The position numbers were made by a program, and so were the translations under genes. 64,000 nucleotides of DNA, from assembly GCA_016184365.1 (NCBI GenBank), contig JACPCW010000079.1, positions 5,661 through 69,660 of the forward strand. The letters run 5' to 3'. The first letter of the stretch is position 1; each line of letters starts with the position of its first letter. The stretch is from Candidatus Rokuibacteriota bacterium (GTDB lineage: Bacteria > Methylomirabilota > Methylomirabilia > Rokubacteriales > CSP1-6). Under the pieces are notes generated by a model that searched no databases, was not told where the DNA came from, and saw only the letters and a list, made by a program, of their open reading frames with translations. Shown piece by piece: positions 7,236 to 63,289 of this stretch.

Positions 7236-8330
7236 TCACGCCGCGAGGACGTAATCCCGGCCCGGGCGATAGCCGCGGGCGTCGAGCGCCGCCGCGATGA
7301 TCTCTCGCGCGCCGTGGCTCCCGACGTAGGACACGACGAACCGGCGGCCGGGCTCGCCGAGGTCCGCCGGCGCGATGACCGGCGCACCCTCGATCTGCTG
7401 GCCGATCTTTGCCGGATCGATGTCGATCCAGGCGTCGATCGCGATGCCGCGCGCCGCGAGGTGCCGCGCATGGCGCCGGCTCACGCGTCCGGCGCCCCAC
7501 ACGGCGATGGTCGGGTGATGCGCGTTGTGCGTGCGAAGCCAGCGCGCAAGATACGTCGCCTTCACGCGCGCGAACGCGTCGGGATCGTAGCGCCCGTCGT
7601 GGCGCGACAGGCGCCCGGGCGTGTCGCGCCACACGAGCAGCGTGTCGGGAAGCTTCTCCATGCGCACGCCGGCCGCGAGCCACCGCAGCCAGAGCTCGTA
7701 GTCCTCGGGGAAGTCGCCCTGGGCGTATCCCCCGTGCCGGTCGACCACGTCGCGACGGAACATGACGGACGGATGGGCGAACGGGGATTCGATGAAGCTG
7801 GCGAGCCGGATGTCGTCGGCGCTCAGCAGGCCGTTCGTCCAGTCGACGTAGCGCGCGTACCCGCCGGCGGTGGCGCGATCACCGTCGAACGCCACGCGCG
7901 TCGCGACCAGACCCGTCTCGGGATGCGTCTCGAGGTGCGCGCGCTGCCGCGCGAGCCGCTCGGGCCGCGCGAGGTCATCGGCGTCCATTCGAGCGATGAG
8001 CGCGCCATGCGCCAGCCCGAGTCCCGTCCGGAGCGCGGGGACGAGGCCGCGCCGCGCCGTCGATCGCACGCGGATGCGCGCGTCGGCGGCGGCGAGCGCG
8101 GCGAGTCGTGCGGCCGAATCGTCCTCGGAACCGTCGTCGACGGCGATCAGCTCCCAGTCGCGCTCGGTCTGTTCCCGGATGCTCGCGACGGCGGCGTCGA
8201 GCGTCTGCGCGGCATCGCGCACGGGCATCACGATCGATATAGCTGGGGGCCCCGAAATGGCCCCCAGACCCCCCGCGCTCGGAGCGCCCCGGGGAACCCG
8301 TGGCGCTCCTCGAATTCCCGTTGTCTTCAG
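7236..8330 (-). CDS. GT2 glycosyltransferase. Start uncertain (CTG 8330 overlapping the upstream stop, or a later codon).
   Basis: ISIVMPVRD, VDDGSED, ARMDADD, EDYELWLR. The N-terminal extension is repeat A copy 2. Confidence 0.85.
   Translation of the reverse strand: MKTTGIRGAPRVPRGAPSAGGLGAISGPPAISIVMPVRDAAQTLDAAVASIREQTERDWELIAVDDGSEDDSAARLAALAAADARIRVRSTARRGLVPALRTGLGLAHGALIARMDADDLARPERLARQRAHLETHPETGLVATRVAFDGDRATAGGYARYVDWTNGLLSADDIRLASFIESPFAHPSVMFRRDVVDRHGGYAQGDFPEDYELWLRWLAAGVRMEKLPDTLLVWRDTPGRLSRHDGRYDPDAFARVKATYLARWLRTHNAHHPTIAVWGAGRVSRRHARHLAARGIAIDAWIDIDPAKIGQQIEGAPVIAPADLGEPGRRFVVSYVGSHGAREIIAAALDARGYRPGRDYVLAA
8242..8313 (-). repeat. Family A copy 2, in frame at the GT2 N-terminus
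   Basis: Reverse complement matches copy 1 and reads IRGAPRVPRGAPSAGGLGAISGPP. Confidence 0.92.
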
Positions 8331-8656
8331 CCCTTCGCCTCGAAGACCTGCTGCGCCACGCGACCGGCCGTCATCGCCGCCGGCCATCCGGCATAGAACG
8401 CGAGATGCGTGATCACCTCGCCGATCTCGTCGCGCTTCAGACCGTTCGCGAGCCCGCGCTCGAGATGTCCCTTGAGCTGCTCGGACCGGCCGAGCGCGAT
8501 CAGCGTGGCGACGGTGACGAGGCTGCGATCGCGCTTCGACAGCCCGGGCCGCTCCCAGACGTCGGCGTAGAGGATCTTTTCCGACAGCTCGATCAGCTTC
8601 GGCGCGACCTGGCGAACGACGTCGCGCGCGGTGGTGGCGGCGGGCGGTGTGCTCAT
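8327..8656 (-). CDS. Carboxymuconolactone decarboxylase (CMD/AhpD) family protein
   Basis: VWERPGLSKRDRSLVTV, EVITHLAFYAGWP. AAGGAGG RBS and TGcTACGCT extended -10 upstream. Confidence 0.9.
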   Translation of the reverse strand: MSTPPAATTARDVVRQVAPKLIELSEKILYADVWERPGLSKRDRSLVTVATLIALGRSEQLKGHLERGLANGLKRDEIGEVITHLAFYAGWPAAMTAGRVAQQVFEAKG

Positions 8657-8691
8657 GCGGCCTCCTTGCGTGAAGTGGCGCGCAGCGTAGC

Positions 8692-8973
8692 ATGGCGCGC
8701 CTGCGCGCGGCGCTCCACGCCGGATCGGTGATCGCCGGCGAGGTCGGCGACAGCAAGCGCGAGATCGTGTTCCACGGCGACGTCATGAACACCGCCGCGC
8801 GGCTCGAAGACGTGACGCGCGAGGTCGGCCGGCGCTTCGCCGCGTCTGCCGACGCAGTGCGGCGGCTCGATGGGCACGATCAGTTCCTGCTCGAGGACCT
8901 CGGTCCGCGGACGCTGCGCGGTCGCGCGGCCCCGATGCGCGTCTACGGGGTCGAGTCGAAGGACGCGCCGTGA
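8692..8973 (+). pseudogene. C-terminal half of a class III adenylate/guanylate cyclase domain
   Basis: RAALHAGSVIAGEVG..GDVMNTAARLE..LRGR. The N-terminal half with the metal-binding Asp residues is absent. Confidence 0.7.
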
Positions 8974-23945: not shown

Positions 23946-24989
23946 ATGAGACGCCACATCGTTGCTGCCTGCGCGCTGCTCACCGCCGTCGTCGTCATCG
24001 CCGGTCCGTCGCCGGTGCCCGCCCAGAAGGAGCCGCTGGTCGTCAGCGTGTGGGGCGGGAACTGGAAGGACACCGTCGAGAAGATCGTCGGCAAGGCCTA
24101 CACCGCGAAGACCGGCACGCCCGTCGAGTTCGAGGTCGGCGGCACGATCGACCGGCTCGCGAAGGCGCGCGTCGCCAAGGGCGCGCCGCTCGTCGACATC
24201 AACTTCACCACGACGCACGTCGGGCGGCTCTACATCTCCGACGGCCTCTACCAGAAGCTCGACATGGCGAAGCTGCCGAACGCGAAGGACCTCGCGAAGG
24301 AAGCGCTGCGCAGCGACTTCCACCTCGGCACGTGGGCGTACGTGTACACGATCGCCTACCGGCCCGATCAGGTGCCGTTCGAGATCACGAAGTGGTCGGA
24401 TCTGTGGGATCCGCGCCTGAAGGGCAAGGTCGGCCTGCCGGACTTCGATCCGTCGCACATCATCACGATCGCCGCGCTGCTCGACGGCGGCGACGAGATC
24501 AGCTGGCAGAAGGGCTCGGAGCGTCTGAAGAAGCTCAAGCCGAACGTCGCGGCGTTCTTCTCCACCGACGCGCGCAGCCAGGATCTGATGAAGACGGGTG
24601 AGGCGCCGGTCCAGGTGATGCTCTCGATCAACGCGTTCCACCTGATGGACCAGGGTCTGAACGTCAAGGTGATCACGCCGCGCGACAAGCCCGGCATCGT
24701 CGGCATCGACACCGTCGCGATCATGGCGGGCACCAAGAAGGCGGACGCGGCGCACCAGTTCGTCGATCTCGTGCTGTCGAAGGAGATCCAGGACCAGCTC
24801 GTCGCGACGTTCAAGGCGGGACCGACGAACATGAAGACGGCGGTGCCCGCGAAGCTGCGCGGACAGCCCGGCGTGTTCACGACGCCGGCGGAATGGAAGG
24901 AGCGCGGCTACATCATGAACGACGAGGCGCGCGCGAAGACGCTGGCGGCCTGGAAGGACTGGTTCAACGCGAACCTCGTTGCCAAGTAG
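23946..24989 (+). CDS. ABC substrate-binding protein (PotD/PotF-like)
   Basis: Signal peptide. LVVSVWGG, WSDLWDP.LKGKV. GAGGAG RBS. Confidence 0.85.
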   Translation: MRRHIVAACALLTAVVVIAGPSPVPAQKEPLVVSVWGGNWKDTVEKIVGKAYTAKTGTPVEFEVGGTIDRLAKARVAKGAPLVDINFTTTHVGRLYISDGLYQKLDMAKLPNAKDLAKEALRSDFHLGTWAYVYTIAYRPDQVPFEITKWSDLWDPRLKGKVGLPDFDPSHIITIAALLDGGDEISWQKGSERLKKLKPNVAAFFSTDARSQDLMKTGEAPVQVMLSINAFHLMDQGLNVKVITPRDKPGIVGIDTVAIMAGTKKADAAHQFVDLVLSKEIQDQLVATFKAGPTNMKTAVPAKLRGQPGVFTTPAEWKERGYIMNDEARAKTLAAWKDWFNANLVAK

Positions 24990-26988
24990 GTCGGTCCGCA
25001 TCGGCGTCGACGTCGGCGGGACGTTCACCGACGTCGTCGCGCGCGACGCCAGGGGGCGCCTGCGCGAGCTGAAAGTGCCGACGACGCCGGCGAATCCGTC
25101 GGCCGGTGTCCTCGCCGGCATCGCGGCGCTCCGCTTACCGTCCGGCCCCGAAGGTGCGCTCGCCGCCGTGGCGCACGGCACCACCGCCGTCACCAACGCG
25201 ATCGTCGAGGGGCGCATCGCGCGCGTCGGGCTGGTCACCACGCGCGGTTTCCGCGACGTGCTCGAGATCGCGCGCCAGAACCGCGCGCACCTCTACGATC
25301 TGGCCGCGCTGCCGCGCCCGGAGCCGCTCGTGCCGCGTCGGCTGCGTCTCGAAGTCGCCGAGCGGGTCACCGTCGACGGCACCGTGCTGACGCCGCTCGA
25401 CGCCACCGCTGTCGGCTCGCTCGTCGAGCGCCTGCGGGGCGAGGGCATCGACAGCGTCGCCGTATGCCTTCTGCACGCGTATGCGAACCCCGCGCACGAG
25501 CGCGAGCTGCGCGCGGCGCTGGCGCCGCACTTCGCGCACGTGTCGATCTCGAGCGACATCAACGCGGAGTTCCGCGAGTACGAGCGGACGGCGACGACCG
25601 TGCTGAACGCCGCGGTCATGCCGCTCGCGACGCGCTACGTCGACGATCTCGTCGATCGCCTCGGCCGCAATCTCCCGCTGCACCTGCTCCACTCCGCGGG
25701 CGGCATGATGTCCGCCGACGCGGCGAAAGAGCGCCCGCTCTCGATGGCGATGTCGGGCCCCGCCGCCGGCGTCGCGGCCGCCGCGTGGGTGGCGAAGCGC
25801 CTCGGGCTCGATCGCGCGGTGGCCTTCGACATGGGCGGCACGACGACGGACGTCTGTCTCATCACCGGCGGCCGCGCGGAAACGACGTCGCAGCGCCGCC
25901 TCGGCGGGTATCCGGTGCGGTTGCCGATGGTGGCCGTCGAATCGATCGGTGCCGGCGGCGGATCGATCGCGTACGCCGACGCGACCGGCGCGCTGAAGGT
26001 CGGTCCGCGCAGCGCCGGCGCGCAGCCGGGTCCGGCGTGCTACGGCGCGGGTGGCGAGGATCCGACGGTCACCGACGCGAACCTCGTGCTCGGGTATCTG
26101 AACGCCGAGCGCGTGTACGGCGGCTCGATCCGTCTCGACGTGCAGCGCGCGCAGGCCGCCGTGCAGCAGATCGCACGCCGCTTCGACCTCGGTCTCGTCG
26201 AGGCCGCGCACGGCATCGTGGAGGTCGCGAACTCGAACATGCTGCGCGCGCTGCGGCTCGTGTCCGTGCAGCGCGGGTACGACCTGCGCCGCTTCGCGCT
26301 CGTCGCGTACGGCGGCGCCGGTCCGGTGCATGCGAGCGCGCTGGCCCGCATGGCCGGCGTCACGCGCGTCGTCGTGCCCGCGCAGTCCGGCGCCTTCTCC
26401 GCGCTCGGCTGTCTCGTCTCGCCGCTGCGCTACGACGCCGTGCAGACGTATCGCGCGCAGCTCGACGGCTTCGACCCGAAGCCGCTGGAGGACCGCTTCG
26501 GCGACCTCGAAGCGCACGGCATGCGGCCGCTGGCGGCGGAGGGCATCGCCGCCCGTCGCGTGACCGTCTCCCGCAGCGTGGATCTCCGCTACGCGGGGCA
26601 GAACTACGAGCTCGAGATTCCCTACGACCGCGATCCGGCCCGGCTGCGCGCGGCGTTCGAAGCGCGGCACCGACAGCTCTACGGGTACGCCACGGGCGAG
26701 GGGGTCGAGTGCGTGAACGCGCGGGTCGTGGCGATGGTCGTCTCGCGCGAGCGTGTCACGGCGACGATGCGCACGGCGCGCACGCCTGAAGTGACGGGCA
26801 GCCAGCGCGCGTATTTCCGGAAAGGCGGGGCAGTGGCGATGAAGCGGTACGCGCGCGAGAGCGTCGGCGCGCGGGGGATCGTCGGCCCCGCGCTCATCGA
26901 GGACGAATGGTCGACGACGATCCTGCTGCCTGGCGATCGCTGCACCGCGACGCCGGCCGGCGATCTCGTCATCGAGGTCGGGCGGTGA
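24979..26988 (+). CDS. Hydantoinase A / 5-oxoprolinase ATP-binding subunit
   Basis: GVDVGGTFTD, HGTT..TN, SGPAAG, DMGGTTTD, GAGGGS, DLRYAGQ. Confidence 0.9.
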   Translation: MPSRSVRIGVDVGGTFTDVVARDARGRLRELKVPTTPANPSAGVLAGIAALRLPSGPEGALAAVAHGTTAVTNAIVEGRIARVGLVTTRGFRDVLEIARQNRAHLYDLAALPRPEPLVPRRLRLEVAERVTVDGTVLTPLDATAVGSLVERLRGEGIDSVAVCLLHAYANPAHERELRAALAPHFAHVSISSDINAEFREYERTATTVLNAAVMPLATRYVDDLVDRLGRNLPLHLLHSAGGMMSADAAKERPLSMAMSGPAAGVAAAAWVAKRLGLDRAVAFDMGGTTTDVCLITGGRAETTSQRRLGGYPVRLPMVAVESIGAGGGSIAYADATGALKVGPRSAGAQPGPACYGAGGEDPTVTDANLVLGYLNAERVYGGSIRLDVQRAQAAVQQIARRFDLGLVEAAHGIVEVANSNMLRALRLVSVQRGYDLRRFALVAYGGAGPVHASALARMAGVTRVVVPAQSGAFSALGCLVSPLRYDAVQTYRAQLDGFDPKPLEDRFGDLEAHGMRPLAAEGIAARRVTVSRSVDLRYAGQNYELEIPYDRDPARLRAAFEARHRQLYGYATGEGVECVNARVVAMVVSRERVTATMRTARTPEVTGSQRAYFRKGGAVAMKRYARESVGARGIVGPALIEDEWSTTILLPGDRCTATPAGDLVIEVGR

Positions 26989-28721
26989 AGCGCGCGACGA
27001 AACGCGCGGTGAGATCGAGGCGCGCCACGGCGGCGCCGGGGCGCGTCCGAGCGCGGGGGGGTATGGGGGGCCATGTCGGGGCCCCCCATGTAATGATCGG
27101 GGCCCCCCATGTGATCACGGTCGAAGTCGTGCGCAACGCGCTCTATGCGATCGCCGAGGAGATGAGCGTCATCGTGATGCGCTCGGCGCGGTCGCCGCTC
27201 CTGAAGGAAGCGGGCGATCTGTCGTCGGCGCTGACCGACGCGGAAGGCCGGCTGATCGCTCAGGGCCGCGACATCCCGATCCACATGGGCGTGATGGGCT
27301 TCACGGTGAAGGAGTTCTTGAAGCGCGTCCCCGCGTCGACGCTTCGCGAGGGCGACGTGTGGTTTCTGAACGTGCCGGAGATCGGCGGCAACCATTTGCC
27401 CGACGTGAAGGCGCTGCGCCCGGTCTTCGCCGGCGGCAAGCTGCGCGCGTTCGCCGTGAACCTCGCGCACTGGGCCGACGTCGGCGGCGCGGTGCCGGGC
27501 AGCTACGTGCCGTACGCGACGGAGTGCTACCAGGAAGGGCTGCGGATCGCGCCGATCCGGCTCTTCTCCGCGGCCGGTCCCGATCGCGAGAAGCTCGAGT
27601 TCGTGCTGTCGAACGTCCGCGGCCGCGAGGAGCGTGAAGGCGACATCTTCGCGCAGTACGCGGCCAACGACGTCGCGGCGCGCCGCTTCGCCGAGCTCTT
27701 TGCCGAACACGGCCCCGACGTCGTCGGCCGCTGCTTCGAGCGGCTGCACCAGGAAAGCGAAGCCGGGATGCGCGCCGCGATCCGCGCGCTGCCCGACGGC
27801 ACGTGGGAAGGCGAGGACTGGCTCGACGACGACGGCGTCGACGACCGGCGCATCCGCATCAAGGCGCGCGTCACCGTGGCCGGCGACGAGGCGACGTTCG
27901 ACTTCACCGGCACGGATCCGCAGGCCCGCGGTCCCGTGAACACGACGTATTTCATCGCGTGCTCCGCCGTGTACTACGCGATGAAGGCGCTCGTCGCGCC
28001 GGACGTGCCGCCGAACGACGGATGCTATCGGCCGCTGCGGGTGATCGTTCCGCCCCGCACGGTGCTCAGCGCCGATCCCGACCGGCCGGTCGTCGGCGGG
28101 AACCATGAAACGTCGCAGCGCGTCGTCGACGCGATCTTCAAGGCCTTCGCGCCCGTGCTGGCGGAGCGCGTCGTCGCCGGCGGGCCGACGACCTCGGGCG
28201 TGATGATCTTCGGCGCCCGTGGCGGCGACGGTCGCTGGCGGATCCTCTACGAGACGCACGGCGGCGGCGAAGGCGCCGGCGCCGGTCGCGATGGCGCGTC
28301 CGCGACGCGTGTCCACATGTCGAACGTGATGAACACGCCGGTCGAGGTGATCGAAGGCGAATATCCGATTGCCGTCGAGGAGCAGACGCTGCGCGCCGGC
28401 TCCGGCGGCGAGGGCCGCCATCGCGGCGGCCTCGGCGTGCGGCGCGCGTACCGGATTCTCGGCGACAGCGTCACGCTGACGACGATGCTGGAGCGCCGGC
28501 TCGTCCCGCCGTGGGGCGTGCACGGTGGCAAGGACGCGCTGCCGTTTCGTCTGACCCTCAATCCGGGTCCGGGCGAGCGCGTGATCCGCGGGAAGGAAAC
28601 GCTCACGCTGAAGGCGGGCGACCTGGTCCTCGTCGAGACGTGCGGCGGCGGCGGCTACGGCGTCCCGGCGGAGCGATCGCGGGAAGCCATCGAGCACGAC
28701 CGGCGGGAAGGCTACGTATGA
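26985..28721 (+). CDS. Hydantoinase B / 5-oxoprolinase subunit with repeat-derived N-terminus (alternative ATGs at 27063 and 27093)
   Basis: EVVRNAL..IAEEM, GGNHLPD, HWADVGG..PGS, NTPVE, GGGGYG. GTGA overlap. Confidence 0.9.
   Translation: MKRATKRAVRSRRATAAPGRVRARGGMGGHVGAPHVMIGAPHVITVEVVRNALYAIAEEMSVIVMRSARSPLLKEAGDLSSALTDAEGRLIAQGRDIPIHMGVMGFTVKEFLKRVPASTLREGDVWFLNVPEIGGNHLPDVKALRPVFAGGKLRAFAVNLAHWADVGGAVPGSYVPYATECYQEGLRIAPIRLFSAAGPDREKLEFVLSNVRGREEREGDIFAQYAANDVAARRFAELFAEHGPDVVGRCFERLHQESEAGMRAAIRALPDGTWEGEDWLDDDGVDDRRIRIKARVTVAGDEATFDFTGTDPQARGPVNTTYFIACSAVYYAMKALVAPDVPPNDGCYRPLRVIVPPRTVLSADPDRPVVGGNHETSQRVVDAIFKAFAPVLAERVVAGGPTTSGVMIFGARGGDGRWRILYETHGGGEGAGAGRDGASATRVHMSNVMNTPVEVIEGEYPIAVEEQTLRAGSGGEGRHRGGLGVRRAYRILGDSVTLTTMLERRLVPPWGVHGGKDALPFRLTLNPGPGERVIRGKETLTLKAGDLVLVETCGGGGYGVPAERSREAIEHDRREGYV
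27015..27112 (+). repeat. Family A copy 3 plus a 16-nt duplication of its 3' arm
   Basis: TCGGGGCCCCCCATGT occurs at 27076-27091 and 27097-27112. Encodes GGMGGHVGAPHVMIGAPHV. Confidence 0.88.
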
Positions 28722-31369: not shown

Positions 31370-31830
31370 CCACCCGCCTTCTCATCAACGGCCGGGCGCG
31401 CGACGTCGACGTCGAGCCGCATCGCACGCTCCTCGAAGTCCTGCGCGACACGCTCGGCATCTTCGACGCCAAGGAAGGCTGCAACGAGGGCGTGTGCGGC
31501 GCCTGCACGGTGCTGCTCGACGGCCGGCCGGTCTCGAGCTGTCTCGTGCTCGCGGTCGCGACGCGCGGGAAGCCGATCACGACGGTGCGCGGTCTCGAGC
31601 GCGACGGCGATCTCCATCCGCTGCAGGACGCCTTCCTGCGCCACGGCGCCGTGCAGTGCGGCTTCTGCACGCCGGGCATGCTGCTGACGGCGTACGCGTT
31701 CGTCGAGGCGCATCCGCATCCCGACCGCGCGGCGATCCGCGAGGCGCTCGAGGGCAACCTGTGCCGCTGCACCGGCTACACGAAGATCGTCGACGCGGTG
31801 GAAGACTACGCGAGGAACCGATGCGGATGA
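31366..31830 (+). CDS. Molybdenum hydroxylase 2Fe-2S subunit (CoxS-like)
   Basis: GCNEGVCGACTV, QCGFCTPG, GNLCRCTGY. Confidence 0.92.
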   Translation: MTTRLLINGRARDVDVEPHRTLLEVLRDTLGIFDAKEGCNEGVCGACTVLLDGRPVSSCLVLAVATRGKPITTVRGLERDGDLHPLQDAFLRHGAVQCGFCTPGMLLTAYAFVEAHPHPDRAAIREALEGNLCRCTGYTKIVDAVEDYARNRCG

Positions 31831-34172
31831 TCGAGGGGGGCCACGGCTTCGCCGGGGACCCCCGAGCGGTGGGGGGTGTGGGGGGCCATATCGGGGCCCC
31901 TCACTCGGTGGTCGGCCAGCGCGTCGTGCGCCACGACGCGCGCGACAAGGTTCAGGCGGCCACCGCGTACGCCGGCGACTGGGCGATGCCCGGCATGCTG
32001 CACGGCGTGGTCGTGCGCTCGCCGTATCCCTCCGCCCGGATCCGCGGCATCGACACGACGAAAGCGGCCGCGATGCGGGGCGTCGCGTGCGTGCTCACCG
32101 CCCGCGACGTGCCGCGCAACACGCTGATGACCGACGTGCCCGGACAGACGACGACCGTCGGTCCGCTGCGCGCGAAGCTGCACGTGCTCGCCGAGGATCG
32201 CGTGCGGCATCAGGGCGAGCCGGTGGCGCTCGTCGCGGCCGAGACGCTCGAGCAGGCGCGCGACGCCGCGGACGCGGTCGAGGTCGACTACGAGCCGCGG
32301 CCCGGCGTGTTCGACGCCGAGCAAGCGCTCGCCCCCGATGCGCCGAAGGTGCACGACGAGGGCAACCTGCTCGCGCACTGGCGCATCGCGCGCGGCGACG
32401 TCGACGCCGCGTTCGCCGGCGCCGCGGTCGTCGTCGAGGGCGAATACCGGACGCAGTTCGTCGATTCCGCCTATCTCGAGCCCGAGACCGGTGTGGCGTG
32501 GATCGATTCCGACGGCGTCATCACGATCCGGCTCTCGACGCAGGTCATCGAGCACTTCCGCGATGTCGCGGACGTGCTCGACGTGCCGCAGAACCGCGTC
32601 CGCGTGATCGGCGCGTATCTCGGCGGCGGCTTCGGGGGCAAGGAAGACGTGACCGTCGAGGTGTATCTCGGACTGCTCGCGGTGAAGACCGGGCGCCCCG
32701 TGAAGATGGTGTGGACACGGCAGGAGTCGCTGCTCGCGCGCGCGAAGCGGCATCCGTATCGCCTGCGCTATCGCACCGCGGCCGCGAAGACCGGCGAGAT
32801 CCTCGCGCAGGACGTCGAGCTGCTGGGCGACTCGGGCGCGTACGCCTACCTGTCGGCGCTCGTGCTGCTGTATTCCACGGTCACCGCGTGCGGTCCGTAT
32901 CGCGTGCCCGCCGCGCGCGTGCAGGCGCGCGTGGCGTACACGAACAACCCGCCGACGTCGGCGATGCGCGGGTTCGGCGCGATGCAGACCGTCTTCGGCT
33001 ACGAGTCGCAGATGGACCGCGTCGCGCGCGCGCTCGGCCTGCCGCCGGCCGACGTCCGCAAGGCGAACGCGCTCCGCCGCGGCGACACGCTGCCGGTCGG
33101 ACAGGTGATCGAGACGCACTGCGCGCTGCCCGAGCTGATCGATCGCGCGTGGGCAGGGCTCGGCGCGCCGACGCCGCCGCGCGCGCCGCACGCGAAGGTC
33201 GGGCGTGGTCTCGCGTGCAATCTCCAGCCGTACGGACGGATCGTCTGGCTCCACGACTGGGCGAGCGCGTGGGTCGGATTCGAGATGGACGGCAGCCTCG
33301 TGGTGCGCTGCGGATGTCCCGACGTCGGCGGCGGTCAGGCGAGCTCGCTCTGTCAGATCGCGGCCGAGGTGCTCGGCGTGCCGATCGATCGCATCAGCGT
33401 GCACATCGCCGACAGCGCGCTGACGCCGCTGGCCGGCACGACGACGGCGAGCCGCCAGCTCTACATGTCGGGCAACGCGACGCTCAAGGCGTCGGGCGAG
33501 CTGCGCGAGCAGATTCTCGGCGTCGCTGCGAAGCTGCTCGAGACGTCGGTTGCCGACGTCGATCTCGCCGGCGGCGAGGTCCGCGCCGCCGACGGCCGGA
33601 CGATGCCGCTCCGGCAAGTCCTGGCCGCGTGCGCGCGCATGGGCGTGCCGCGTAGCCATCTCGCCGTATACCACGCCCCGGCTGGGGAACCCGTGGATCT
33701 GACGAAAGGCTCGGGCAAGATCTTTCCGGACTACACGTTCGGCTGCCACGCGGTGGAGCTCGAGGTCGACACCGAGACGGGACGCGTGCGGCTGCTCAAA
33801 CACGTCGCCGCGCACGACGTCGGACGCGCGATCAATCCGATGTCGGTCGAAGGCCAGATCGAAGGCGGCGCGGTGCAGGGCCTCGGCTACGCGATGATGG
33901 AAGAGGTCGTGCTCGAGGACGGCATCAACCTGACGACGTCGTTTGCGTCGTACCTGATCCCGACGACGGTCGACGTGCCCGACGTCGAGGCGATCGTGCT
34001 CGAATCCGGCGAAGGGCTGGGGCCGTTCGGCGCGCGCGGCATCGGCGAGCCGCCGATCGGCCCGCCGGCGGCGGCCGTCGCCAACGCGATCGAGGACGCG
34101 ACGGGCGCGCGCGTGACGCGCCTGCCAATGACGCCCGAACGCGTCGCGCGCGCCTTGCGATTGTTGACGTGA
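31827..34172 (+). CDS. Molybdenum hydroxylase Mo-binding subunit (xanthine dehydrogenase family) with repeat-derived N-terminus
   Basis: GGGFGGK, AMRGFG, GQIEGG..QGLG, GIGEPP. ATGA overlap. Confidence 0.9.
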   Translation: MIEGGHGFAGDPRAVGGVGGHIGAPHSVVGQRVVRHDARDKVQAATAYAGDWAMPGMLHGVVVRSPYPSARIRGIDTTKAAAMRGVACVLTARDVPRNTLMTDVPGQTTTVGPLRAKLHVLAEDRVRHQGEPVALVAAETLEQARDAADAVEVDYEPRPGVFDAEQALAPDAPKVHDEGNLLAHWRIARGDVDAAFAGAAVVVEGEYRTQFVDSAYLEPETGVAWIDSDGVITIRLSTQVIEHFRDVADVLDVPQNRVRVIGAYLGGGFGGKEDVTVEVYLGLLAVKTGRPVKMVWTRQESLLARAKRHPYRLRYRTAAAKTGEILAQDVELLGDSGAYAYLSALVLLYSTVTACGPYRVPAARVQARVAYTNNPPTSAMRGFGAMQTVFGYESQMDRVARALGLPPADVRKANALRRGDTLPVGQVIETHCALPELIDRAWAGLGAPTPPRAPHAKVGRGLACNLQPYGRIVWLHDWASAWVGFEMDGSLVVRCGCPDVGGGQASSLCQIAAEVLGVPIDRISVHIADSALTPLAGTTTASRQLYMSGNATLKASGELREQILGVAAKLLETSVADVDLAGGEVRAADGRTMPLRQVLAACARMGVPRSHLAVYHAPAGEPVDLTKGSGKIFPDYTFGCHAVELEVDTETGRVRLLKHVAAHDVGRAINPMSVEGQIEGGAVQGLGYAMMEEVVLEDGINLTTSFASYLIPTTVDVPDVEAIVLESGEGLGPFGARGIGEPPIGPPAAAVANAIEDATGARVTRLPMTPERVARALRLLT
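31831..31904 (+). repeat. Family A copy 4, in frame at the Mo-subunit N-terminus
   Basis: Encodes MIEGGHGFAGDPRAVGGVGGHIGAPH. Compensatory stem changes. Confidence 0.88.
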
Positions 34173-53362: not shown

Positions 53363-53465
53363 GCCGTGCCGATTCTACGCCGCGCCTCGCATCGACGCGT
53401 CGCGTTGGACGCGGTCGCCGTCGTGCGACGACGGCGGCGGGCCGGACGCGATCGACCGGTGGTGC

Positions 53466-53618
53466 GGCCGGCGGCGGCGGGCCGGGGAGGGGCTCGCAGC
53501 CCACGAGATTTCAGCACCCATCACCGTTTGAGCCGTTCCCACTCCCCACGCCGTGGTCGACTTCACCCGCGGCAGGCACGGGTCTGTCGAGCCCCTCCCC
53601 GACCCACCGCCGCCGGCC
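53466..53618 (-). repeat. Structured element family B copy 2
   Basis: 31-nt inverted arms (53466-53496 / 53588-53618, 2 mismatches) around the same core. Confidence 0.9.
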
Positions 53619-53743
53619 ACAACGCGCGCGCCGCGGGCATCGCGCAGAAGCGCGCAGAGCGCACGCGCCGCGGCGCGCGTCGTCGCACGACGCCGCGAAG
53701 CGGCGGGTTCGGAACGTCGTGGAGCGACGGGCAACGGGTGAGG

Positions 53744-53891
53744 CGCGGGCGGTCGAGGTGGGAGGGGTCCGACAGACGCGTGCCTGCCGCGGGTGATGTC
53801 GAAGCAGCGGTGGCCGAGTGGGAACGGCTCAAGCGGTGATGGGTGCTGAAATCTCGTCGGCTGCGGACCCCTCCCACCTCGGCCGCCCGCG
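53744..53891 (+). repeat. Structured element family B copy 3, inverted relative to copy 2
   Basis: 28-nt arms (53744-53771 / 53864-53891, one G-T pair). Core GAGTGGGAACGGCTCAAGCGGTGATGGGTGCTGAAATCTCGT. Confidence 0.9.
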
Positions 53892-53979
53892 GCCGCAACG
53901 CGTCGTCCGGCCCGTACACGACGCCCGTCGTCCGGCCCGTGGACGCGGCGTGGGGCGATGACGAGCGACGACGCGCGCG

Positions 53980-56169: not shown

Positions 56170-58191
56170 ATGTTCGTCGTCGGGATCGACGTGGGCGGCA
56201 CGTTCACCGACGTGACCGCGGTCGACGAGGCCACCGGCCGGGTCACGGTCACGAAGGTGCCGTCGCGCCCGCGTGACGAAGCGGGCGCGGTGCTCGCCGG
56301 CCTCGCGGCGCTGGCGATTCCCGACGGCGGTGTCCGCCGGCTCGTCCACGGCACCACCGTCGGGACCAACGCCGTGCTCGAGCGCCGCGGCGCGCGCGTC
56401 GCGCTGCTGACGACCGAGGGCTTTCGCGATCTGCTCGAGATCGGCCGCACGAAGCGCAACATTCCCGCGCTGTTCATCCCGACCTTCGTGCGCCCGAAGC
56501 CGGTGGTGCCGCGTGCGCTGCGGTTCGAGGTGGCCGAGCGCCTGCTGCACGACGGCTCGGTGCTCCGGCCGCTCGACGCCGGCGACGTCGCGCGCGCCAT
56601 CGGCGAGCTCGAGGCGACCGGCGCGGAAGCGGTCGCCGTGTGTCTGCTCCACGCATGGGCGAACCCGGCGCACGAGCGCATGCTCGGCGAGGCGCTCAAG
56701 GCGCGCCTGCCCCACGTGCCGGTCTCGCTCTCGTCGGACGTCGTGCCCGAGTACCGGGAGTTCGAGCGGTTCTCCACGACGGTCCTGAACGCCTACCTCC
56801 AGCCGCTGCTGGACCGGTACCTCGCGGCGCTCGAGGAACGGCTGCACGCCGCGGGGGTCCTTCCCGGGGTGTTGACGATCGGCTCCGCGGGCGGCGTGCT
56901 CTCGTCCGAGACGGCGCGGCGCCTGCCGATCCGCACGATCCTGTCCGGCCCGGCCGGCGGCGTGAGCCAGGCGTGTTTCATCGCCGAGCGCGCCGGCCTC
57001 CGCGACTTCATCACCTACGACATGGGCGGGACGTCGACGGACGTCTGCCTGATCCGCGACCTCGATCCCGTGACGACGACCGACAATCTCATCGGCGGCT
57101 TTCCCGTGAAGACGCCGCAGATCGATCTCCGCACGGTCGGCGCCGGCGGCGGCAGCGTCGCCTGGCTCGACGTCGACGGCAGTCTGCAGGTCGGCCCGCG
57201 CAGCGCCGGCGCGCGGCCCGGCCCGGCGGCGTACGGTCTGGGCGGCACCGAGCCGACGGTCACGGACGCGAACGTCGTGCTCGGCCGGATCGGCGTGACG
57301 CGCACGCTCGGCGGCGCCATCACGATCGATCCCGGGGCGGCGACGCGCGCCGTCGAGGGCCTCGCGCAGCGTGTCGCGCTCGACGTCCACGCGACCGCCG
57401 ACGGCATCATCCGCATCGCCGTCGCGCGCATGGTGTCGTCGATCCGCGAGATCTCGATCCAGCGCGGTCACGACCCGCGCGATTTCACGCTCATCGCGTA
57501 CGGCGGCGCCGGTCCGATGCACGCGGTCGCGATCGCCGCGGAGCTCGGGCTGCCGCGCGTGCTCGTGCCGCGGCATCCCGGGAACTTCTCGGCGCTCGGA
57601 CTGCTCGTGTCCGATCTCAAGCACGACGACGTCCGCACGCACCTCGGCCCGCTCCGCGACCGGATCGGCGGCGTCGGCGCGCTCTTCGCGGAGATGGAGC
57701 GCGTCGCCGCCGGCCGCCTCGAGGCCGATGGCTTCGGCGCGACGGCCAGACGCATCGAGCGCTCGCTCGATCTTCGCTACGCCGGGCAGGCGTTCGAGCT
57801 CGCCGTGCCCGTCGACACGCGGCTCGAGCTCGCGGTCATCGAGCGCGAGTTCCATCGGCGCCACGAGGCGGCCTACGGCCACGCGAACCTCGCCGGCCAG
57901 ATCGAGCTGGTGAACGCGCGCATCGCGGCCTACGGCGTCGTCACGAAGCCGGAGCCTCCGCGGTATCGCAGCGACGGCGTGCGTCTGGACGACGCGCGCG
58001 TCGAGACGCGTCGCCTCTGGTTCGACGGTGAGCCCGTCGACTGTCCGGTCTGGGACCGTGACCGGCTGCCGGAAGGCGGCCGCTTCGCGGGGCCGGCGCT
58101 GATCGAAGAGTTCGGCTCGACGACCGTGGTACCGCCCGGCTGGCGCGGGGCGATCGACGAGCCCGGCAATCTGCTGCTGGAGCGCGCGTGA
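56170..58191 (+). CDS. Hydantoinase A / 5-oxoprolinase ATP-binding subunit (second copy)
   Basis: GIDVGGTFTD, HGTTVGTN, SGPAGG, DMGGTSTD. Leaderless-type promoter. Confidence 0.92.
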   Translation: MFVVGIDVGGTFTDVTAVDEATGRVTVTKVPSRPRDEAGAVLAGLAALAIPDGGVRRLVHGTTVGTNAVLERRGARVALLTTEGFRDLLEIGRTKRNIPALFIPTFVRPKPVVPRALRFEVAERLLHDGSVLRPLDAGDVARAIGELEATGAEAVAVCLLHAWANPAHERMLGEALKARLPHVPVSLSSDVVPEYREFERFSTTVLNAYLQPLLDRYLAALEERLHAAGVLPGVLTIGSAGGVLSSETARRLPIRTILSGPAGGVSQACFIAERAGLRDFITYDMGGTSTDVCLIRDLDPVTTTDNLIGGFPVKTPQIDLRTVGAGGGSVAWLDVDGSLQVGPRSAGARPGPAAYGLGGTEPTVTDANVVLGRIGVTRTLGGAITIDPGAATRAVEGLAQRVALDVHATADGIIRIAVARMVSSIREISIQRGHDPRDFTLIAYGGAGPMHAVAIAAELGLPRVLVPRHPGNFSALGLLVSDLKHDDVRTHLGPLRDRIGGVGALFAEMERVAAGRLEADGFGATARRIERSLDLRYAGQAFELAVPVDTRLELAVIEREFHRRHEAAYGHANLAGQIELVNARIAAYGVVTKPEPPRYRSDGVRLDDARVETRRLWFDGEPVDCPVWDRDRLPEGGRFAGPALIEEFGSTTVVPPGWRGAIDEPGNLLLERA

Positions 58192-60203
58192 CCATGGGAG
58201 GGCGAGTCGATCCCATCACGCTCGAAGTCCTGCGCGAGGCCTTTTCGTCGATCGTGCGCGAGATGCGGGTGACGCTGCTCCGCACCGCGTATTCGTCGAT
58301 CCTCTACGAGGGCGAGGACTTCTCGTGCGTGCTCATGGACGGTACGGCGCAGATCGTCGCCATGTCCAAGGGGCAGGACCATCCGCTCCACATCGTGCCG
58401 ATCAGCTGGTCCATGGGCGCGGTGCGCGAGCGCTTCGGCGACGACATCCATCCGGGCGACATCTTCCTGCACAACGACCCCTACACGGGCGGCACGCACC
58501 TGAACGACGTCGCGATGATCTACCCGCTCTTCGTCGACGGCGCGCTCTTCATGTTCCCCGTCGTGCGCGCGCACTGGGGCGACGTCGGCGGCATGAGCCC
58601 GGGCAGCCTGTCGGGACGCGCGACGGAGATCTACCAGGAAGGCGTCCGCATCCCGCCGATCCGGATCGTCGACCGCGGACGACCGAACCAGGCGGCGCTC
58701 GACATCATCTTCGGCAACGTGCGCGGGCCGGAAGACCGCGAGGGCGACTTCCGCGCCATGATCGGGACGTGCCGCAAGGCGGCGGACCGCGTGGAGGAGC
58801 TCGTCGCGCGCTACGGCGCCGGGACGCTGCGGGCGGCGATGCACGAGCTCTTCGACCGCGCCGAGGCGCGGATGCGCCGGCGCATCCGCGAGCTCCCGCC
58901 CGGCGAGTACCGGTACGAGGCCTACCTGGAGGGCGGGCGCGACCGGTTCGAGCCCCTGACGATCCGCGCGCGCGTCGTCATCGAGGGCGACGCGATCACC
59001 GTCGACCTGACGGGCACCTCGCCCCAGACCGCCGGGCCGACGAACGTCGGCCCGGCGATGGCGCCGACCGGCGCGTTCACGATCGTGAAGTCGTTCCTCG
59101 ATCCCGGGGGCGACATCAACTCCGGGGCGTTCCGGCCTCTGACGGTCATCGCGCCGGAGGGCACGATCGTGAACGCGCGGCGGCCGGCGCCGTGCGGCGG
59201 CATGGTCGAGGTGAAGTCCGGCGTCGAGTCCGCGGTGATGGGCGCGCTGGCGCAGGCGATGGCGGGCCAGGTGACGGGCGATTTGAAGGGTGGCGGCAAC
59301 CATTGTTACATCGGCAGCGCCTCCTTCATCTTCTACGAGTACCCGGCGGGGGGGACGGGCGGCTTCGACGGCGGCGACGGCTCGAACACGGTGCGCGCCT
59401 TCACCGAGAGCGACATGACGACGCTCCAGCCCGTCGAAGCCGTCGAGCAGAAGTACCCGCTGCGCGTGGAGCGGACGGCGCTGCGCGTCGATTCGGGCGG
59501 GCCGGGACGCTGGCGCGGCGGCGTCGGCCTCACGCGCGAGGTCCGGCTGCTCGTCGATCGCGCGCAGCTCTCCGTCCTCGCCGAGCGCAGTCTGCTGCCG
59601 CCGTATGGCGTGTGCGGGGCCGCGGCCGGCGCGCCCAACCGCTTCTGGGTGCGGCGCGACGGCGCGGCCGTCGAACCGTCGCCGGTGCCCGGCAAGGTGA
59701 GCGGGTTTCCGCTGCTGGCCGGTGACGTCGTCGTGATGGAGTCGTCCGGCGGCGGCGGCTACGGCGACCCGCTCGAGCGCGATGTCGCGCTCGTCGCCGC
59801 CGATCTCGCGGAAGGCGTCGTCACCGCGCGCGGCGCCGCGGACGTCTACGGCGTCGTGTCGACCGGCGGCGTCATCGATCCCGCCGCGACCGTGCAGCAC
59901 CGACGCGAGCTTCGCGCCGCGCGGGTGGCCGTGACGATCGCCGCCGGCGACGGGTTCGACGAGACGCGCGTGCGCGAGGTGCGGATCGATCAGGCGACGG
60001 CGCGTCGTCTCGTCGTGTCGGTCGGCGACGTCGTCGAGCTGGTCAATCCGACGGGCGCGCCGCTCCGACTGTGGGTCGTGGCCATCGACGATGGACCGCC
60101 CGCGCGCGCCGTCGTATCGCACGAGGCCGCGGCCATCCTTCGCGCCGGCGACGGAACGCGCGCGGAGATCCGCCGCGTCTATGCGGCGAGCGCTGTCGGC
60201 TAG
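58188..60203 (+). CDS. Hydantoinase B / 5-oxoprolinase subunit (second copy) with C-terminal extension
   Basis: DPITLEV, NDPY.GGTHLND, HWGDVGG..PGS, GGGGYGDPLER. Confidence 0.9.
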   Translation: MTMGGRVDPITLEVLREAFSSIVREMRVTLLRTAYSSILYEGEDFSCVLMDGTAQIVAMSKGQDHPLHIVPISWSMGAVRERFGDDIHPGDIFLHNDPYTGGTHLNDVAMIYPLFVDGALFMFPVVRAHWGDVGGMSPGSLSGRATEIYQEGVRIPPIRIVDRGRPNQAALDIIFGNVRGPEDREGDFRAMIGTCRKAADRVEELVARYGAGTLRAAMHELFDRAEARMRRRIRELPPGEYRYEAYLEGGRDRFEPLTIRARVVIEGDAITVDLTGTSPQTAGPTNVGPAMAPTGAFTIVKSFLDPGGDINSGAFRPLTVIAPEGTIVNARRPAPCGGMVEVKSGVESAVMGALAQAMAGQVTGDLKGGGNHCYIGSASFIFYEYPAGGTGGFDGGDGSNTVRAFTESDMTTLQPVEAVEQKYPLRVERTALRVDSGGPGRWRGGVGLTREVRLLVDRAQLSVLAERSLLPPYGVCGAAAGAPNRFWVRRDGAAVEPSPVPGKVSGFPLLAGDVVVMESSGGGGYGDPLERDVALVAADLAEGVVTARGAADVYGVVSTGGVIDPAATVQHRRELRAARVAVTIAAGDGFDETRVREVRIDQATARRLVVSVGDVVELVNPTGAPLRLWVVAIDDGPPARAVVSHEAAAILRAGDGTRAEIRRVYAASAVG

Positions 60204-61382: not shown

Positions 61383-61464
61383 GGAGACCTCCTTGGGTGG
61401 CCCCATCGTACCGCCGCTCGGACCCCTGTGAGAAGATTCAGCGCGCGATCAGGAGGGTGCCTGC

Positions 61465-62331
61465 ATGGAACGACGGCGACTCGGACGGACGGGACATCGA
61501 TCCACGGTCGTGACGTTCGGCGCCGTCGCGGTCGGACGGCTGGAGCAGGATGCCGCGGATCGCGCGATCCAGCTCGTGCTCGACCGCGGCGTGAATCACT
61601 TCGACGTCGCGCCGCGGTACGCGGACGCCGAGCTGCGGCTCCAGCCGTGGATGCCGCGGATCCGCGACCGGGTGTTTCTCGGCGGCAAGACGGCCGAGCG
61701 CACGCGCGAGGCGGCGTGGGAACAGCTGAACCGCTCGCTCGAGCGGCTCGGCACGGACCATCTCGATCTCTACCAGCTCCACTCGGTCGGCAAGATCGCG
61801 GACCTCGACGCGTGCACCGCGCGGGGCGGCGCCCTCGAGGCGCTCGTGCAGGCGCGCGAGCAGGGCCTCGTGCGGTGGCTCGGGGTGACCGGGCACACGC
61901 ACGCCGCGCCGGGCACGCACTTCGAGGCGCTCCGCCGCTTCGATTTCGACACGGTCATGTTCCCGCTGAACTTCGTGCTGTGGGCCGATCCGGCGTACCG
62001 GCGCGACGCGACGGCGCTGCTCGACGAATGCGCGCGGCGCGACGTCGGCGTGCACATCATCAAGACGGTTGCGAAGGATTCATGGGGCGAGCGCGCGAAG
62101 ACGCATGCGACCTGGTACGAGCCGTTCACCGACCAGGGCGTCATCGACCGCGCCGTCGCCTTCGTGCTGTCGAAGCCGGTCACGACGCTCACGACCGTCG
62201 GCGACGTCGGCGTGCTGCCGAAGGTGCTCGATGCCGCCGAGCGGTTCCGGCCGCTGACCCCCGAGGCGGAAGCTGCGCTCGTCCGCGAGGCCGGGCAGTA
62301 TCACTCGCCATTCGTCGGCTCGTGGGCCTAG
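61465..62331 (+). CDS. Aldo/keto reductase
   Basis: RRLGRTG, FDVAPRY, SLERL.TDHLDLYQLH. Confidence 0.9.
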   Translation: MERRRLGRTGHRSTVVTFGAVAVGRLEQDAADRAIQLVLDRGVNHFDVAPRYADAELRLQPWMPRIRDRVFLGGKTAERTREAAWEQLNRSLERLGTDHLDLYQLHSVGKIADLDACTARGGALEALVQAREQGLVRWLGVTGHTHAAPGTHFEALRRFDFDTVMFPLNFVLWADPAYRRDATALLDECARRDVGVHIIKTVAKDSWGERAKTHATWYEPFTDQGVIDRAVAFVLSKPVTTLTTVGDVGVLPKVLDAAERFRPLTPEAEAALVREAGQYHSPFVGSWA

Positions 62332-62333
62332 CG

Positions 62334-62747
62334 ATGGATCTCGCGGACGCAACGGTCCAGCGCTATCTCGCCACGAAGGACGTGGCGCTGCTCGCGACCG
62401 TCAACCCCGACGGATCGCCGCTCGCGATGCCGATGTGGTTCCTGCACAATCCCGCGACCCTGACGATGATCAGCGTCGCCGGCCTCGCCAAGGTGCGGAA
62501 CCTGACACGCGATCCGCGCGTCTGCGTCGTCGCCGAGAGCGGCGGACGCGGTGACATCCGCGGGGTCGCGGTGCAGGGCCGCGCCGAGTTTCTCGATGAC
62601 TCGCCCGAGCGCCGCGCGCTCGTCGAGCGCTTCCTCGACAAGTACGACCCGCACCTCGCGAAGCTCTGGAACGGCCGCGTGATGCCGCCGACCCGGGTGA
62701 TGTTCCGCATCGTCCCGTCGCACGTCCGGTCCTGGGGCCTCGGGTGA
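62334..62747 (+). CDS. Pyridoxamine-5'-phosphate oxidase-like (PPOX, possibly F420-binding) protein
   Basis: LATVNPDGSP...PMWF, KVRNL.RDPRV, GRAE. Confidence 0.82.
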   Translation: MDLADATVQRYLATKDVALLATVNPDGSPLAMPMWFLHNPATLTMISVAGLAKVRNLTRDPRVCVVAESGGRGDIRGVAVQGRAEFLDDSPERRALVERFLDKYDPHLAKLWNGRVMPPTRVMFRIVPSHVRSWGLG

Positions 62748-63289
62748 TCGAGGAGCGTCACGGGTTCCCCGGGACGCTCCGAGCGTTGGGGGGTGTGGGG
62801 GGCCATGTCGGGGCCCCCCACGTGATTATCGGAGCCGGGATCCTCGGCGCCGCGACGGCGTATCACCTCGCGCGTGCCGGCCGCCGCGTCGTCGTGCTCG
62901 AAGCCGCCGTGCCCGCGAGCGGAGCGAGCGCGAACTCGTTCGCGTGGGTCAACGCGGTTCACAAGGAGCCCGAGCCGTACCACCGGCTGAACGCCGCCGG
63001 TGTCGCCGAGTACGCGACGGTGATGAAGGAGCTCGGCGAGGACTCACGCTCGCCATTCCCGCCGGCGCGGAGATCGCGCTGTTCGAGCCCGACGGCTGGG
63101 TCGACGCGCCGCGCCTGATCGCGACGTTCCTCGCGCGCGCGCAGGCGCTCGGCGCCGAGGTGCGCACCGAGACGGCGGTGCGCGGGTTGAGGCGCGACGG
63201 CGCTGCTCGGCCGGCTGATCGCCGCCGAGATGACCGGCGCGCCCGCGGACGAGCTGCTCGCGCCGTTCCGCCCGTCCCGCTTCCGCTGA
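62744..63289 (+). pseudogene. FAD-dependent oxidoreductase (DAO family) with two internal deletions/frameshifts
   Basis: IIGAGILGAATAYHL..GASANSFAWVN, then DGWVDAPRL in a second frame, then LLAPFRPSRFR* after a further shift. Only ~550 nt in total. Confidence 0.8.
62748..62821 (+). repeat. Family A copy 5, in frame at the DAO-family N-terminus
   Basis: Encodes MIEERHGFPGTLRALGGVGGHVGAPH. GTGA start/stop overlap directly before it. Confidence 0.92.

Follow-up and report, generated by a model that had tools for sequence, protein, structure and literature searches.

Rickettsia palindromic elements (RPEs) are repeats of about 150 bp which are found in frame in genes (Ogata et al., 2000, 2002, as cited in the review of MITEs, i.e., miniature inverted-repeat transposable elements, PMC10969869). 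In its part on these elements, the review treats the frequent in-frame colonization of genes as a peculiarity of Rickettsia and considers it possible that other prokaryotes undergo something similar. Mycobacterial interspersed repetitive units (MIRUs) insert at start codons, and according to section 11 of PMC12548453 the open reading frame (ORF) of the repeat is coupled at -4 nt (ATGA), an arrangement considered to render the insertion harmless. Here, an interspersed repeat named Family A is described, which was noticed in 64,000 nt of a Candidatus Rokuibacteriota bacterium (GCA_016184365.1, contig JACPCW010000079.1, positions 5,661 to 69,660), in the following called the window. The initial annotation of the window had assigned to this repeat the N-termini of four unrelated enzymes: a Mo (CoxL-like) subunit, hydantoinase B (HyuB), a GT2 protein and a DAO-family protein. 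The analysis of the whole genome and of its relatives points to a mobile double hairpin which seems to be readable by ribosomes, and which occurs at operon junctions and inside genes; an N-terminal extension is likely for two of the four, the Mo subunit and HyuB.

Family A is an interspersed double-hairpin repeat of about 80 nt (core about 70 nt; about 100 nt with the variable leader and tail). Its consensus is T-CGAGG-AGCGCCaCGG-nTTn-CCGgGGCGCT-CCGAGCG-nn-G5-6-NNN-G5-6CC-ATGTCGG-GGC5-6-A-NN, followed by an A/T-rich tail of about 11 nt. Core lengths from 68 to 72 nt are all common, a 3-periodicity of the length is absent, the loop CCATNTCGG is almost invariant, and the only motif at the termini is a short TGATC palindrome. 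The window belongs to a metagenome-assembled genome (MAG; G000 in Table 1) of 5.58 Mb in 146 contigs, which is 90% complete and has a GC content of 70%. Genome-wide, 380 copies were identified by a regular expression for the core and 520 matches by an nhmmer profile at E<1e-3; five copies are located in the window. In every copy (e.g., window 62790-62819), the sense strand shows several G-runs, each of 4-6 bases and close to one another, with C-runs opposite, and a G-quadruplex or i-motif as an alternative to hairpin 2 is conceivable.

With the exact core pattern and one genome per species, at least 81 loci were found, and the matches listed come nearly all from MAGs of Candidatus Rokubacteria, Rokuibacteriota or Methylomirabilota, with two labelled "uncultured bacterium". 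An exact core was also detected on a 3.3-kb contig binned as Gemmatimonadales (L057, DASWEL010000313.1); this label is probably a binning error, a transfer being less likely. The repeat is scattered through most of the 40 relatives searched, which include the unpublished genomes G011 and G024; no conclusion rests on those two alone. In open-access papers and preprints, no description of a repeat of this kind was found for Rokubacteria or Methylomirabilota.

Covariation was analyzed in 81 aligned copies, 76 of them from other genomes. In the pattern used for the locus search, the centre of hairpin 2 was fixed; neither the columns that covary nor any part of hairpin 1 belong to the fixed letters. 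The two-hairpin model pairs 94.1% of the cells versus 86.9% in shuffled data, with none of 500 shuffles being as good, while at most 57% of the cells pair with slid partners. Folding also gives two hairpins. Since compensatory changes occur in both hairpins (pair 22-47: AU 37, CG 24, GC 12; pair 32-36: CG 54, GC 23; pair 68-92: CG 32, GC 15, AU 13, UA 6), the nucleic-acid structure of Family A is under selection. The initial annotation had proposed such selection in place of selection on the peptide; its first half stands, but the frames are strongly non-random where the repeat appears to be translated.

Several known types of elements were compared with these features. A scan of the whole window against Rfam 15 at the gathering threshold yielded no match. 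An intrinsic (Rho-independent) terminator was rejected, as a stretch of uridines is absent after the hairpin; behind the C-run, the tail has a mixed A/T composition, with an A in 320/373 copies at +1, a T in 211/373 at +4 and an A in 220/373 at +7. A system of repetitive extragenic palindromes and their tyrosine transposase (REP/RAYT) was rejected as well: the Y1/RAYT transposase family PF01797 has no match in G000 and matches in 10 of 41 relatives, other transposase families not being searched. Short flanking repeats were inspected for a fixed target-site duplication, and the longest shared word has a mean length of 3.40 versus 3.26 in shuffled pairings. On either side of some junction copies (contigs C71, C76, C5, C38 and C124), 10-25 nt of the stop/start junction are present as direct duplicates, with the upstream stop in the left and the downstream start in the right one. 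These are far longer than usual target-site duplications.

The genomic context was determined for 418 copies with clear anchors, using a codon-usage gene caller trained on G000 (5,428 genes, 90% of the sequence). Co-oriented genes flank 219 of them, 143 in sense and 76 in antisense orientation of the element. A further 52 copies lie between convergent and 2 between divergent genes, 25 are inside one predicted gene, and for 120 one side is uncalled. An independent repeat which is tolerated at coupled operon junctions, as originally suggested, is supported by this distribution. Within 16 nt from the start of the tail, an ATG is present in 56% of the tandem-sense copies versus 19% of the convergent copies, and therefore the element adjoins real starts. 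These downstream starts are mostly located 3-11 nt past a very stable hairpin, too close for a Shine-Dalgarno (SD) motif, which fits a coupling by the ribosome that translates the upstream gene (RNA-unfolding and scanning models, as outlined in PMC12548453). In 7 of the 143 tandem-sense copies (e.g., C112+, C84- and C97-), the upstream frame enters or crosses the element before its stop, and the repeat thus also supplies C-terminal residues.

The reading frames at the junctions were examined at 103 sense junctions with the upstream stop 0-45 nt before the core and the downstream start at most 30 nt after it. The three frame classes are represented unequally (56/30/17, chi-square p=1e-5). The leading class (56/103, p=9e-6) is the one in which a mini-ORF opening with NTGA at the upstream stop can relay to an ATGA at the downstream start. 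An NTG overlapping the upstream stop was found at 67 of the 103 junctions, and the ORF from the upstream stop closes exactly on a TGA overlapping the downstream start at 43/103 sense and 11/41 antisense junctions. The base following the downstream start is an A in 60/103 cases compared to 38% genome-wide (p=3e-5). As the relay class is the most frequent one at each of the core lengths 68, 69, 70 and 71, the lengths of leader and tail compensate. In other MAGs, the same arrangement occurs at 13 of 17 junctions (80 loci, found by a search pattern for one core variant). The frame in which hairpin 2 is read as WGPCRGP, taking the ORF from the upstream stop, is present in 20 of 51 relay-type copies and in none of 25 fusion-type copies, i.e., those in which this ORF is in frame with the downstream gene (Fisher p=8e-5). 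Such an avoidance would be expected from a filter acting on the protein product. Reading of Family A by ribosomes is suggested by the frame statistics. None of the four junctions flagged in the window is of the relay type; each is either a fusion-type junction or lacks a start at the upstream stop.

Based on the observed anatomy, distribution, covariation, frame statistics and ortholog comparisons, the best explanation, to which we give somewhat more than even confidence, is the following. Family A would be a mobile repeat of Candidatus Rokubacteria (Methylomirabilota) with two GC-rich hairpins, which colonizes transcribed DNA. Its sites would be operon junctions in either orientation, the 3' ends of genes and gene interiors, with almost none in divergent promoter regions, and its stop-free core would make it readable by ribosomes. 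Three outcomes can be assumed. At about 40-47% of the co-oriented junctions, a relay mini-ORF would open at NTGA, cross both hairpins and close at ATGA, which would keep the translational coupling and melt the hairpin that abuts the downstream start. At about 22-30% of the junctions, the same ORF would by chance be in frame with the downstream gene, resulting in an N-terminal fusion. In at least 22 genes, finally, the element would be inserted internally and in frame, in the fashion of RPEs. The Mo and HyuB junctions would be of the fusion type, with the element inside the ancestral ORF, close to its 5' end, and at the N-terminus of their products most likely stand 27 (Mo) and about 42 (HyuB) residues encoded by the repeat. 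The DAO junction shares this geometry, in front of a dead gene.

An action on the RNA or DNA level is a different explanation, which we consider quite improbable. The element would work like REPs and bacterial interspersed mosaic elements (BIMEs), i.e., as mRNA stabilizer, attenuator, protein-binding or recombination site, and its relation to the reading frame would be a side effect of harmless sites. The strong covariation in both hairpins and the nearly invariant loop are in line with this. So are the excess of sense over antisense copies and the two divergent copies among 418, as for REPs in transcribed 3' regions, and also the copies between convergent genes, where coupling is not needed. 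It leaves unexplained the bias among the three frame classes, the enrichment of ATGA and the frame bias of the internal and fusion copies, and neither a U-run nor an Rfam match nor a RAYT gene in G000 speaks for it. Such an action is also compatible with the explanation given above rather than exclusive of it.

The Mo gene (Ald_Xan_dh_C, MoCoBD_1 and MoCoBD_2 in Pfam) is preceded by the gene of a Fer2/Fer2_2 subunit. Its ORF MIEGGHGFAGDPRAVGGVGGHIGAPH begins with the ATG at 31827, overlapping the upstream TGA (31829-31831). The copy at this junction (nhmmer match 31816-31913) is the most diverged of the five in the window, and its hairpin 1 is degenerate in the fold. The left start matches the start-stop overlap ATGGCTGA/GTGGCTGA of the orthologs, and a SD-like GAGGA is located 4-10 nt upstream of the left starts. 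At 10 of 13 other loci, the Mo ortholog has an A/GTGGCT(G/A) start which overlaps or abuts the CoxS stop; one of the 13 is truncated by the end of its contig. The full-length orthologs carry 11-13 poorly conserved residues before the motif (V/L/I)(V/I)G(Q/R), and in G000 the element stands in frame in place of this variable tail. A start at the right-hand GTG 31908 would drop the tail and result in a product beginning with MVGQR..., whereas under an extension the junction peptide between repeat and enzyme would be AVGGVGGHIGAPHSVVGQR. The Mo protein has a length of 781 amino acids, is full length with complete Pfam domains and without stops, and shows a high coding score.

The hydantoinase B gene follows a hydantoinase A gene (Hydantoinase_B after Hydantoinase_A in Pfam), and its ORF, containing ...GGMGGHVGAPHVMIGAPHV..., begins with the GTG at 26985, overlapping the upstream TGA (26986-26988). 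A partial duplicate of the 3' arm of Family A follows the copy at 27098-27109. The comparison comprised 13 loci, with L125 coming from the unpublished genome G024. Several of the relatives (e.g., L122, L123 and L124) have the junction GCATGAGC and begin with MS(R/P)AVHPVTLEV, and the rest are variants. The left M K R A of G000 corresponds to the M S R A of the orthologs; after it the ORF is 36 codons longer, in frame. Position 3 of the Hydantoinase_B profile aligns to I44, and the two right-hand starts would give a protein from profile positions 2-3, beginning with MITVEV... or MIGAPHV..., whereas GGMGGHVGAPHVMIGAPHVITVEVVR would be the junction peptide of an extended protein. HyuB is a full-length protein of 578 amino acids with a complete Pfam domain, no stops and a high coding score. 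The paralog at 58188, to which it had been compared in the initial annotation, does begin with VTMGGRVDPITLEV as described. Two paralogous hyuA-hyuB pairs are present in the window (24979-28721 and 56170-60203; direct repeats D1, D7 and D9, 70-75% identity), and the element was found only at the junction of the first pair.

For the Mo subunit and HyuB, an N-terminal extension is parsimonious, because the orthologs place the start and the SD-like motif to the left of an in-frame insert. For both genes, the simplest expectation is therefore that translation begins at the ancestral start and continues through the repeat, which we consider somewhat more probable than not.

The GT2 junction is different. 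Its minus-strand ORF IRGAPRVPRGAPSAGGLGAISGPP is located downstream of the CTG at 8330 and follows the stop of the CMD-family gene (8329-8327). Position 1 of the Glycos_transf_2 profile aligns to the S at 8237-8235, and the canonical starts GTG and ATG (Table 1) would shorten the first strand of the domain by two to four positions. Upstream of them, the only options are near-cognate codons (CTG 8330, ATT, ATA, ATC) and, about 60 nt inside the upstream gene, an ATG. A GT2 ortholog of the same genus reads GTG ATC TCC ATC (MISI...), 2 nt past a different upstream gene. Its start position, one codon upstream of I-8240, corresponds to a GCT of the repeat tail in G000. The repeat thus seems to have replaced the ancestral start, leaving several candidate starts of which none is singled out.

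The DAO ORF VIEERHGFPGTLRALGGVGGHVGAPH from the GTG at 62744, which overlaps the TGA at 62745-62747, lies behind a PNPOx-family gene (Pfam). A repeat-free ortholog of the same genus has an ATG 2 nt past a TAG and reads MANPDVAPDVAIIGAG. The GTG 62744 is made up of the final G of a conserved glycine codon and the TG of the stop; this glycine codon is present in the four relatives inspected, with G as the third base in three. Judged from these codons, it is not an ancestral start. In comparison with a 373-amino-acid ortholog of the same genus, the surviving parts correspond only to residues 7-84, 142-183 and 343-370 and lie in different frames, and the Pfam DAO match covers no more than profile positions 3-81 of 353. 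On this alignment, the DAO gene is a frameshifted and deleted remnant, not an enzyme with a repeat-encoded N-terminus. Downstream of the remnant, an uncharacterized ORF beginning with MEIHGVTVLPHPEP was observed (window 63499-64000).

All four repeat-bearing frames of the initial annotation (Mo, DAO, HyuB and GT2) are thus present and translate as predicted, and their start overlaps the upstream stop with a canonical codon at ATGA 31827, GTGA 26985 and GTGA 62744; for GT2 this codon is only a CTG. Four enzyme N-termini do not result from this, as the DAO gene is a pseudogene remnant and GT2 has only a CTG upstream while the start position of its ortholog is taken by the repeat tail. Aligning orthologs with and without the insert, which had been recommended, places the start to the left of the insert in Mo and HyuB, not in GT2 and DAO. 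New N-terminal peptides are accordingly likely for the first two only, and a canonical start exists to the right of all four copies.

This last point leads to the possibility that Family A is purely intergenic and untranslated at the four junctions, with GTG 31908, ATG 27093 or GTG 27111, GTG 8231 and GTG 62822 as the real starts. The long ORFs would then be over-extensions through a stop-free, GC-rich insert, and the left NTGA a relic of the former stop-start overlap. We regard this as unlikely, with appreciable weight, and a number of observations count for it and against a translated repeat. The core is free of stops in the frame of the downstream gene in 139/143 tandem-sense copies and in the other two frames in 278/286, i.e., in about 97% of all frames, and therefore an open frame is no evidence of translation; open frames through Family A are expected by chance and alone mean nothing. 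The NTGA start is in frame with the downstream gene in 45/143 tandem-sense copies (p=0.66 versus 1/3) and in 30/103 well-defined junctions (p=0.40 versus 1/3), and N-terminal fusions thus occur at chance frequency and are not favoured. A canonical in-frame start follows the C-run within 17 nt in 100/143 tandem-sense copies and mostly has to be used, because the upstream frame differs. For about 70% of the junction copies, the downstream gene is forced to start directly past the hairpin, and the organism is therefore able to initiate there. At the four window junctions, such a start coincides with the beginning of the Pfam domain or is no more than two positions away from it (31908; 27093/27111; 8231; 62822), and the left GTG of the DAO ORF demonstrably is no ancestral start. 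A canonical start is absent within -4 to +6 nt of the upstream stop at 21/103 sense junctions. A phmmer search with the 30-residue N-terminal peptide of the DAO ORF against 1.84 billion representative sequences gave 128 matches at E<=1e-3, of which 109 have at most 150 amino acids and none has 500 or more, in a set whose clustering at 50% identity hides small inserts in enzymes. In addition, the gene caller is not a validated pipeline, and the copies of Family A are related by descent, so that the p-values overstate their independence. Translation of the element and the choice of the start are both inferred from sequence.

An untranslated repeat is difficult to reconcile with other observations. 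In Mo and HyuB, the start defined by the orthologs and the SD-like motif are intact on the left, in frame and without a stop before the enzyme body, and the right-hand starts follow a very stable hairpin after 3-6 nt, which leaves no space for a SD motif. That the fusion copies shun the WGPCRGP frame is unexpected if the repeat is never read, and the copies inside genes show that its peptide is tolerated. A further suggestion, that the insertions inactivated the downstream genes and that the four enzymes are pseudogenes or poorly expressed, seems highly improbable. It would suit the frameshifted and deleted DAO gene and the GT2 gene with its lost start position. The Mo and HyuB proteins, on the other hand, are intact, with neither frameshifts nor an elevated dN/dS relative to orthologs seen, and the Mo protein is 77% identical over its full length to an intact CoxL paralog of the same genome.

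In this comparison of Mo with the CoxL paralog, the sole gap comprises 23 amino acids and is the repeat peptide, i.e., the paralog carries Family A inside its coding sequence. Altogether, 25 copies were identified in frame within 22 predicted genes, in both orientations and with a coding signal on either side, which confirms the parallel to the RPEs drawn in the initial annotation. In the internal copies, hairpin 2 is read as GAMSGPP in 6/7 sense copies and as GP(D/E)MAP in 12/14 antisense copies (p=2e-4). A Pfam scan of 20 of the 22 genes revealed domains which flank or span the insert in 15/20 (Table 1). As shown by these copies, the repeat peptide is tolerated in proteins. In five relatives, the matches to the CoxL paralog begin past the insert, and a shared insertion was not found among them. 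In three relatives, the insert of about 62 amino acids is missing from the CopA ortholog, which reads ...RLQAEERLVAMVGDG.... In the linkers of PutA from genomes of the same genus, the length is similar and no recognizable repeat is present.

The CopA gene with three in-frame copies (L131, G000:C97:25309-27822) has two of them in tandem just before MVGDGINDAPALA. In its orthologs, the insertion site (..LQAEERLV..) is similar to how the element begins at its 5' end (IEER = ATCGAGGAGCG), a likeness which hints at a homology-guided insertion. At the NuoG-NuoH locus, masked or unknown bases are located upstream, and this fusion is tentative.

Table 1. Features of Family A in the window and copies within genes of G000. 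Positions refer to the window unless a contig is given.
Feature	Position	Strand	Remarks
Family A core, fifth window copy	4744-4811	+	between convergent genes, no downstream start needed
Family A core, CMD-family gene/GT2 junction	8245-8312	-	sense to both genes
Family A core, hydantoinase A/hydantoinase B junction	27016-27087	+
Family A core, CoxS-like 2Fe-2S subunit/Mo (CoxL-like) subunit junction	31832-31902	+	CGAGG to end of C-run
Family A core, PNPOx-family gene/DAO remnant junction	62749-62819	+
GT2, CTG overlapping the upstream TGA	8330-8328	-	non-canonical
GT2, ATA TCG ATC GTG ATG	8240-8226	-	I S I V M; canonical GTG 8231-8229 and ATG 8228-8226
HyuB, left start region	26974-26996	+	SD-like GAGG 26974-26977, 7 nt, GTG 26985 over TGA, AAG CGC GCG = M K R A
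HyuB, alternative in-frame starts	27093-27113	+	ATG 27093 and GTG 27111 (V43)
Mo subunit, left start region	31812-31831	+	SD-like GAGGA 31812-31816, then in-frame ATG 31821 and ATG 31827 over TGA
Mo subunit, alternative canonical start GTG	31908-31910	+	V of VVGQRVVRHDARDKV, VVGQ; 6 nt past the C-run
DAO-family pseudogene remnant	62822-63283	+	GTG 62822 (VIIGAG...) opens a 98-codon frame
CopA-type ATPase			three copies
CoxL paralog			insert inside MoCoBD_2
PutA			insert in linker
HyuA, two genes			one insert between domains, the other inside Hydant_A_C
DUF748/AsmA proteins, two			inserts between matched stretches
CofG/H-type radical SAM fusion			insert in linker
MutS2			insert in linker
E2 acyltransferase			two copies, in linkers
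Thiamine pyrophosphate (TPP) enzyme			insert in linker
Fpg			insert inside N-terminal domain
PyrF			insert between two OMPdecase stretches
LbH (hexapeptide) acetyltransferase and DegT aminotransferase	G000:C66:15837-17543		single ORF joined via the element (L138)
NuoG and NuoH	G000:C89:37680-40574		single ORF joined via the element (L141)

A more far-reaching idea, which falls a little short of an even chance in our view, is that Family A is a "ribosome-transparent" mobile element whose shape would allow it to enter translated DNA harmlessly. Ribosomes coming from the upstream gene would restart at it, unwind both hairpins and be passed on to the next gene by the NTGA...ATGA arrangement, and the same design, free of stops and filtered for its frames, would settle in frame within genes. 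It would give rise to N-terminal, internal and C-terminal peptides as well as to gene fusions, apparently including those of the LbH acetyltransferase with DegT and of NuoG with NuoH. If this is true, Family A represents a second case of protein-coding palindromes, independent, larger and outside Rickettsia, and a natural cassette for translational coupling across an uncultured phylum.

The repeat accounts for hundreds of ambiguous starts and for odd Gly/Pro-rich segments in the gene calls of Rokubacteria. It also offers a tractable system to study how mobile DNA remains neutral within an operon and gives rise to new peptide segments and fused genes. Another repeat family, unrelated to Family A, was observed in the window as nested inverted repeats (53463-53897) in the gap between the genes at about 53368 and 53980. 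Its 82-nt arms are 87% and its 55-nt arms 84% complementary, and one arm-like copy is located at 35854-35912.

Among the known systems, RPEs, as far as they are covered in the cited review, resemble Family A as interspersed palindromic repeats with many in-frame copies in unrelated conserved genes, mostly in linkers or loops, which yield a recurring peptide. The host of the RPEs is an AT-rich, obligate intracellular alpha-proteobacterium, whereas Family A is found in a free-living, uncultured soil and groundwater phylum with a GC content of 70%. It is also shorter than the roughly 150 bp given for RPEs in that review, and it is mostly located at operon junctions. The likeness concerns the manner of working only and does not imply membership; given the host, homology is not expected.

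With the MIRUs, as described in the section cited, Family A shares the position between co-oriented genes and a repeat ORF which is coupled to a flanking gene by a -4 nt overlap. In contrast to them, it is a covarying double hairpin which occurs in both orientations, also in frame within coding sequences, and in another phylum. MIRUs form arrays of variable number tandem repeats (VNTRs), whereas Family A is mostly single-copy with few tandem pairs (e.g., in CopA and on C2 and C17).

Short GC-rich palindromes in transcribed intergenic DNA with occasional ORFs or peptides are also described, in the accounts cited, for REP/BIME, for enterobacterial repetitive intergenic consensus sequences and repeat units (ERIC/RU; Delihas, 2007, PMC2759123) and for the Coxiella QMITE (PMC5896051). 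Unlike in REP/RAYT systems, the Y1/RAYT transposase was found in a minority of the relatives and not in G000. Compared to MITEs, a target-site duplication of fixed length was not seen, and the termini show nothing beyond the short TGATC palindrome. Thus, one family in a free-living, GC-rich and uncultured phylum combines RPE-like insertions in core enzymes (CopA, CoxL, PutA, PyrF, Fpg and E2) with MIRU-like relay ORFs. Compared by description, Family A is an RPE/MIRU-like family, which joins both behaviours in both orientations and is assigned to neither.

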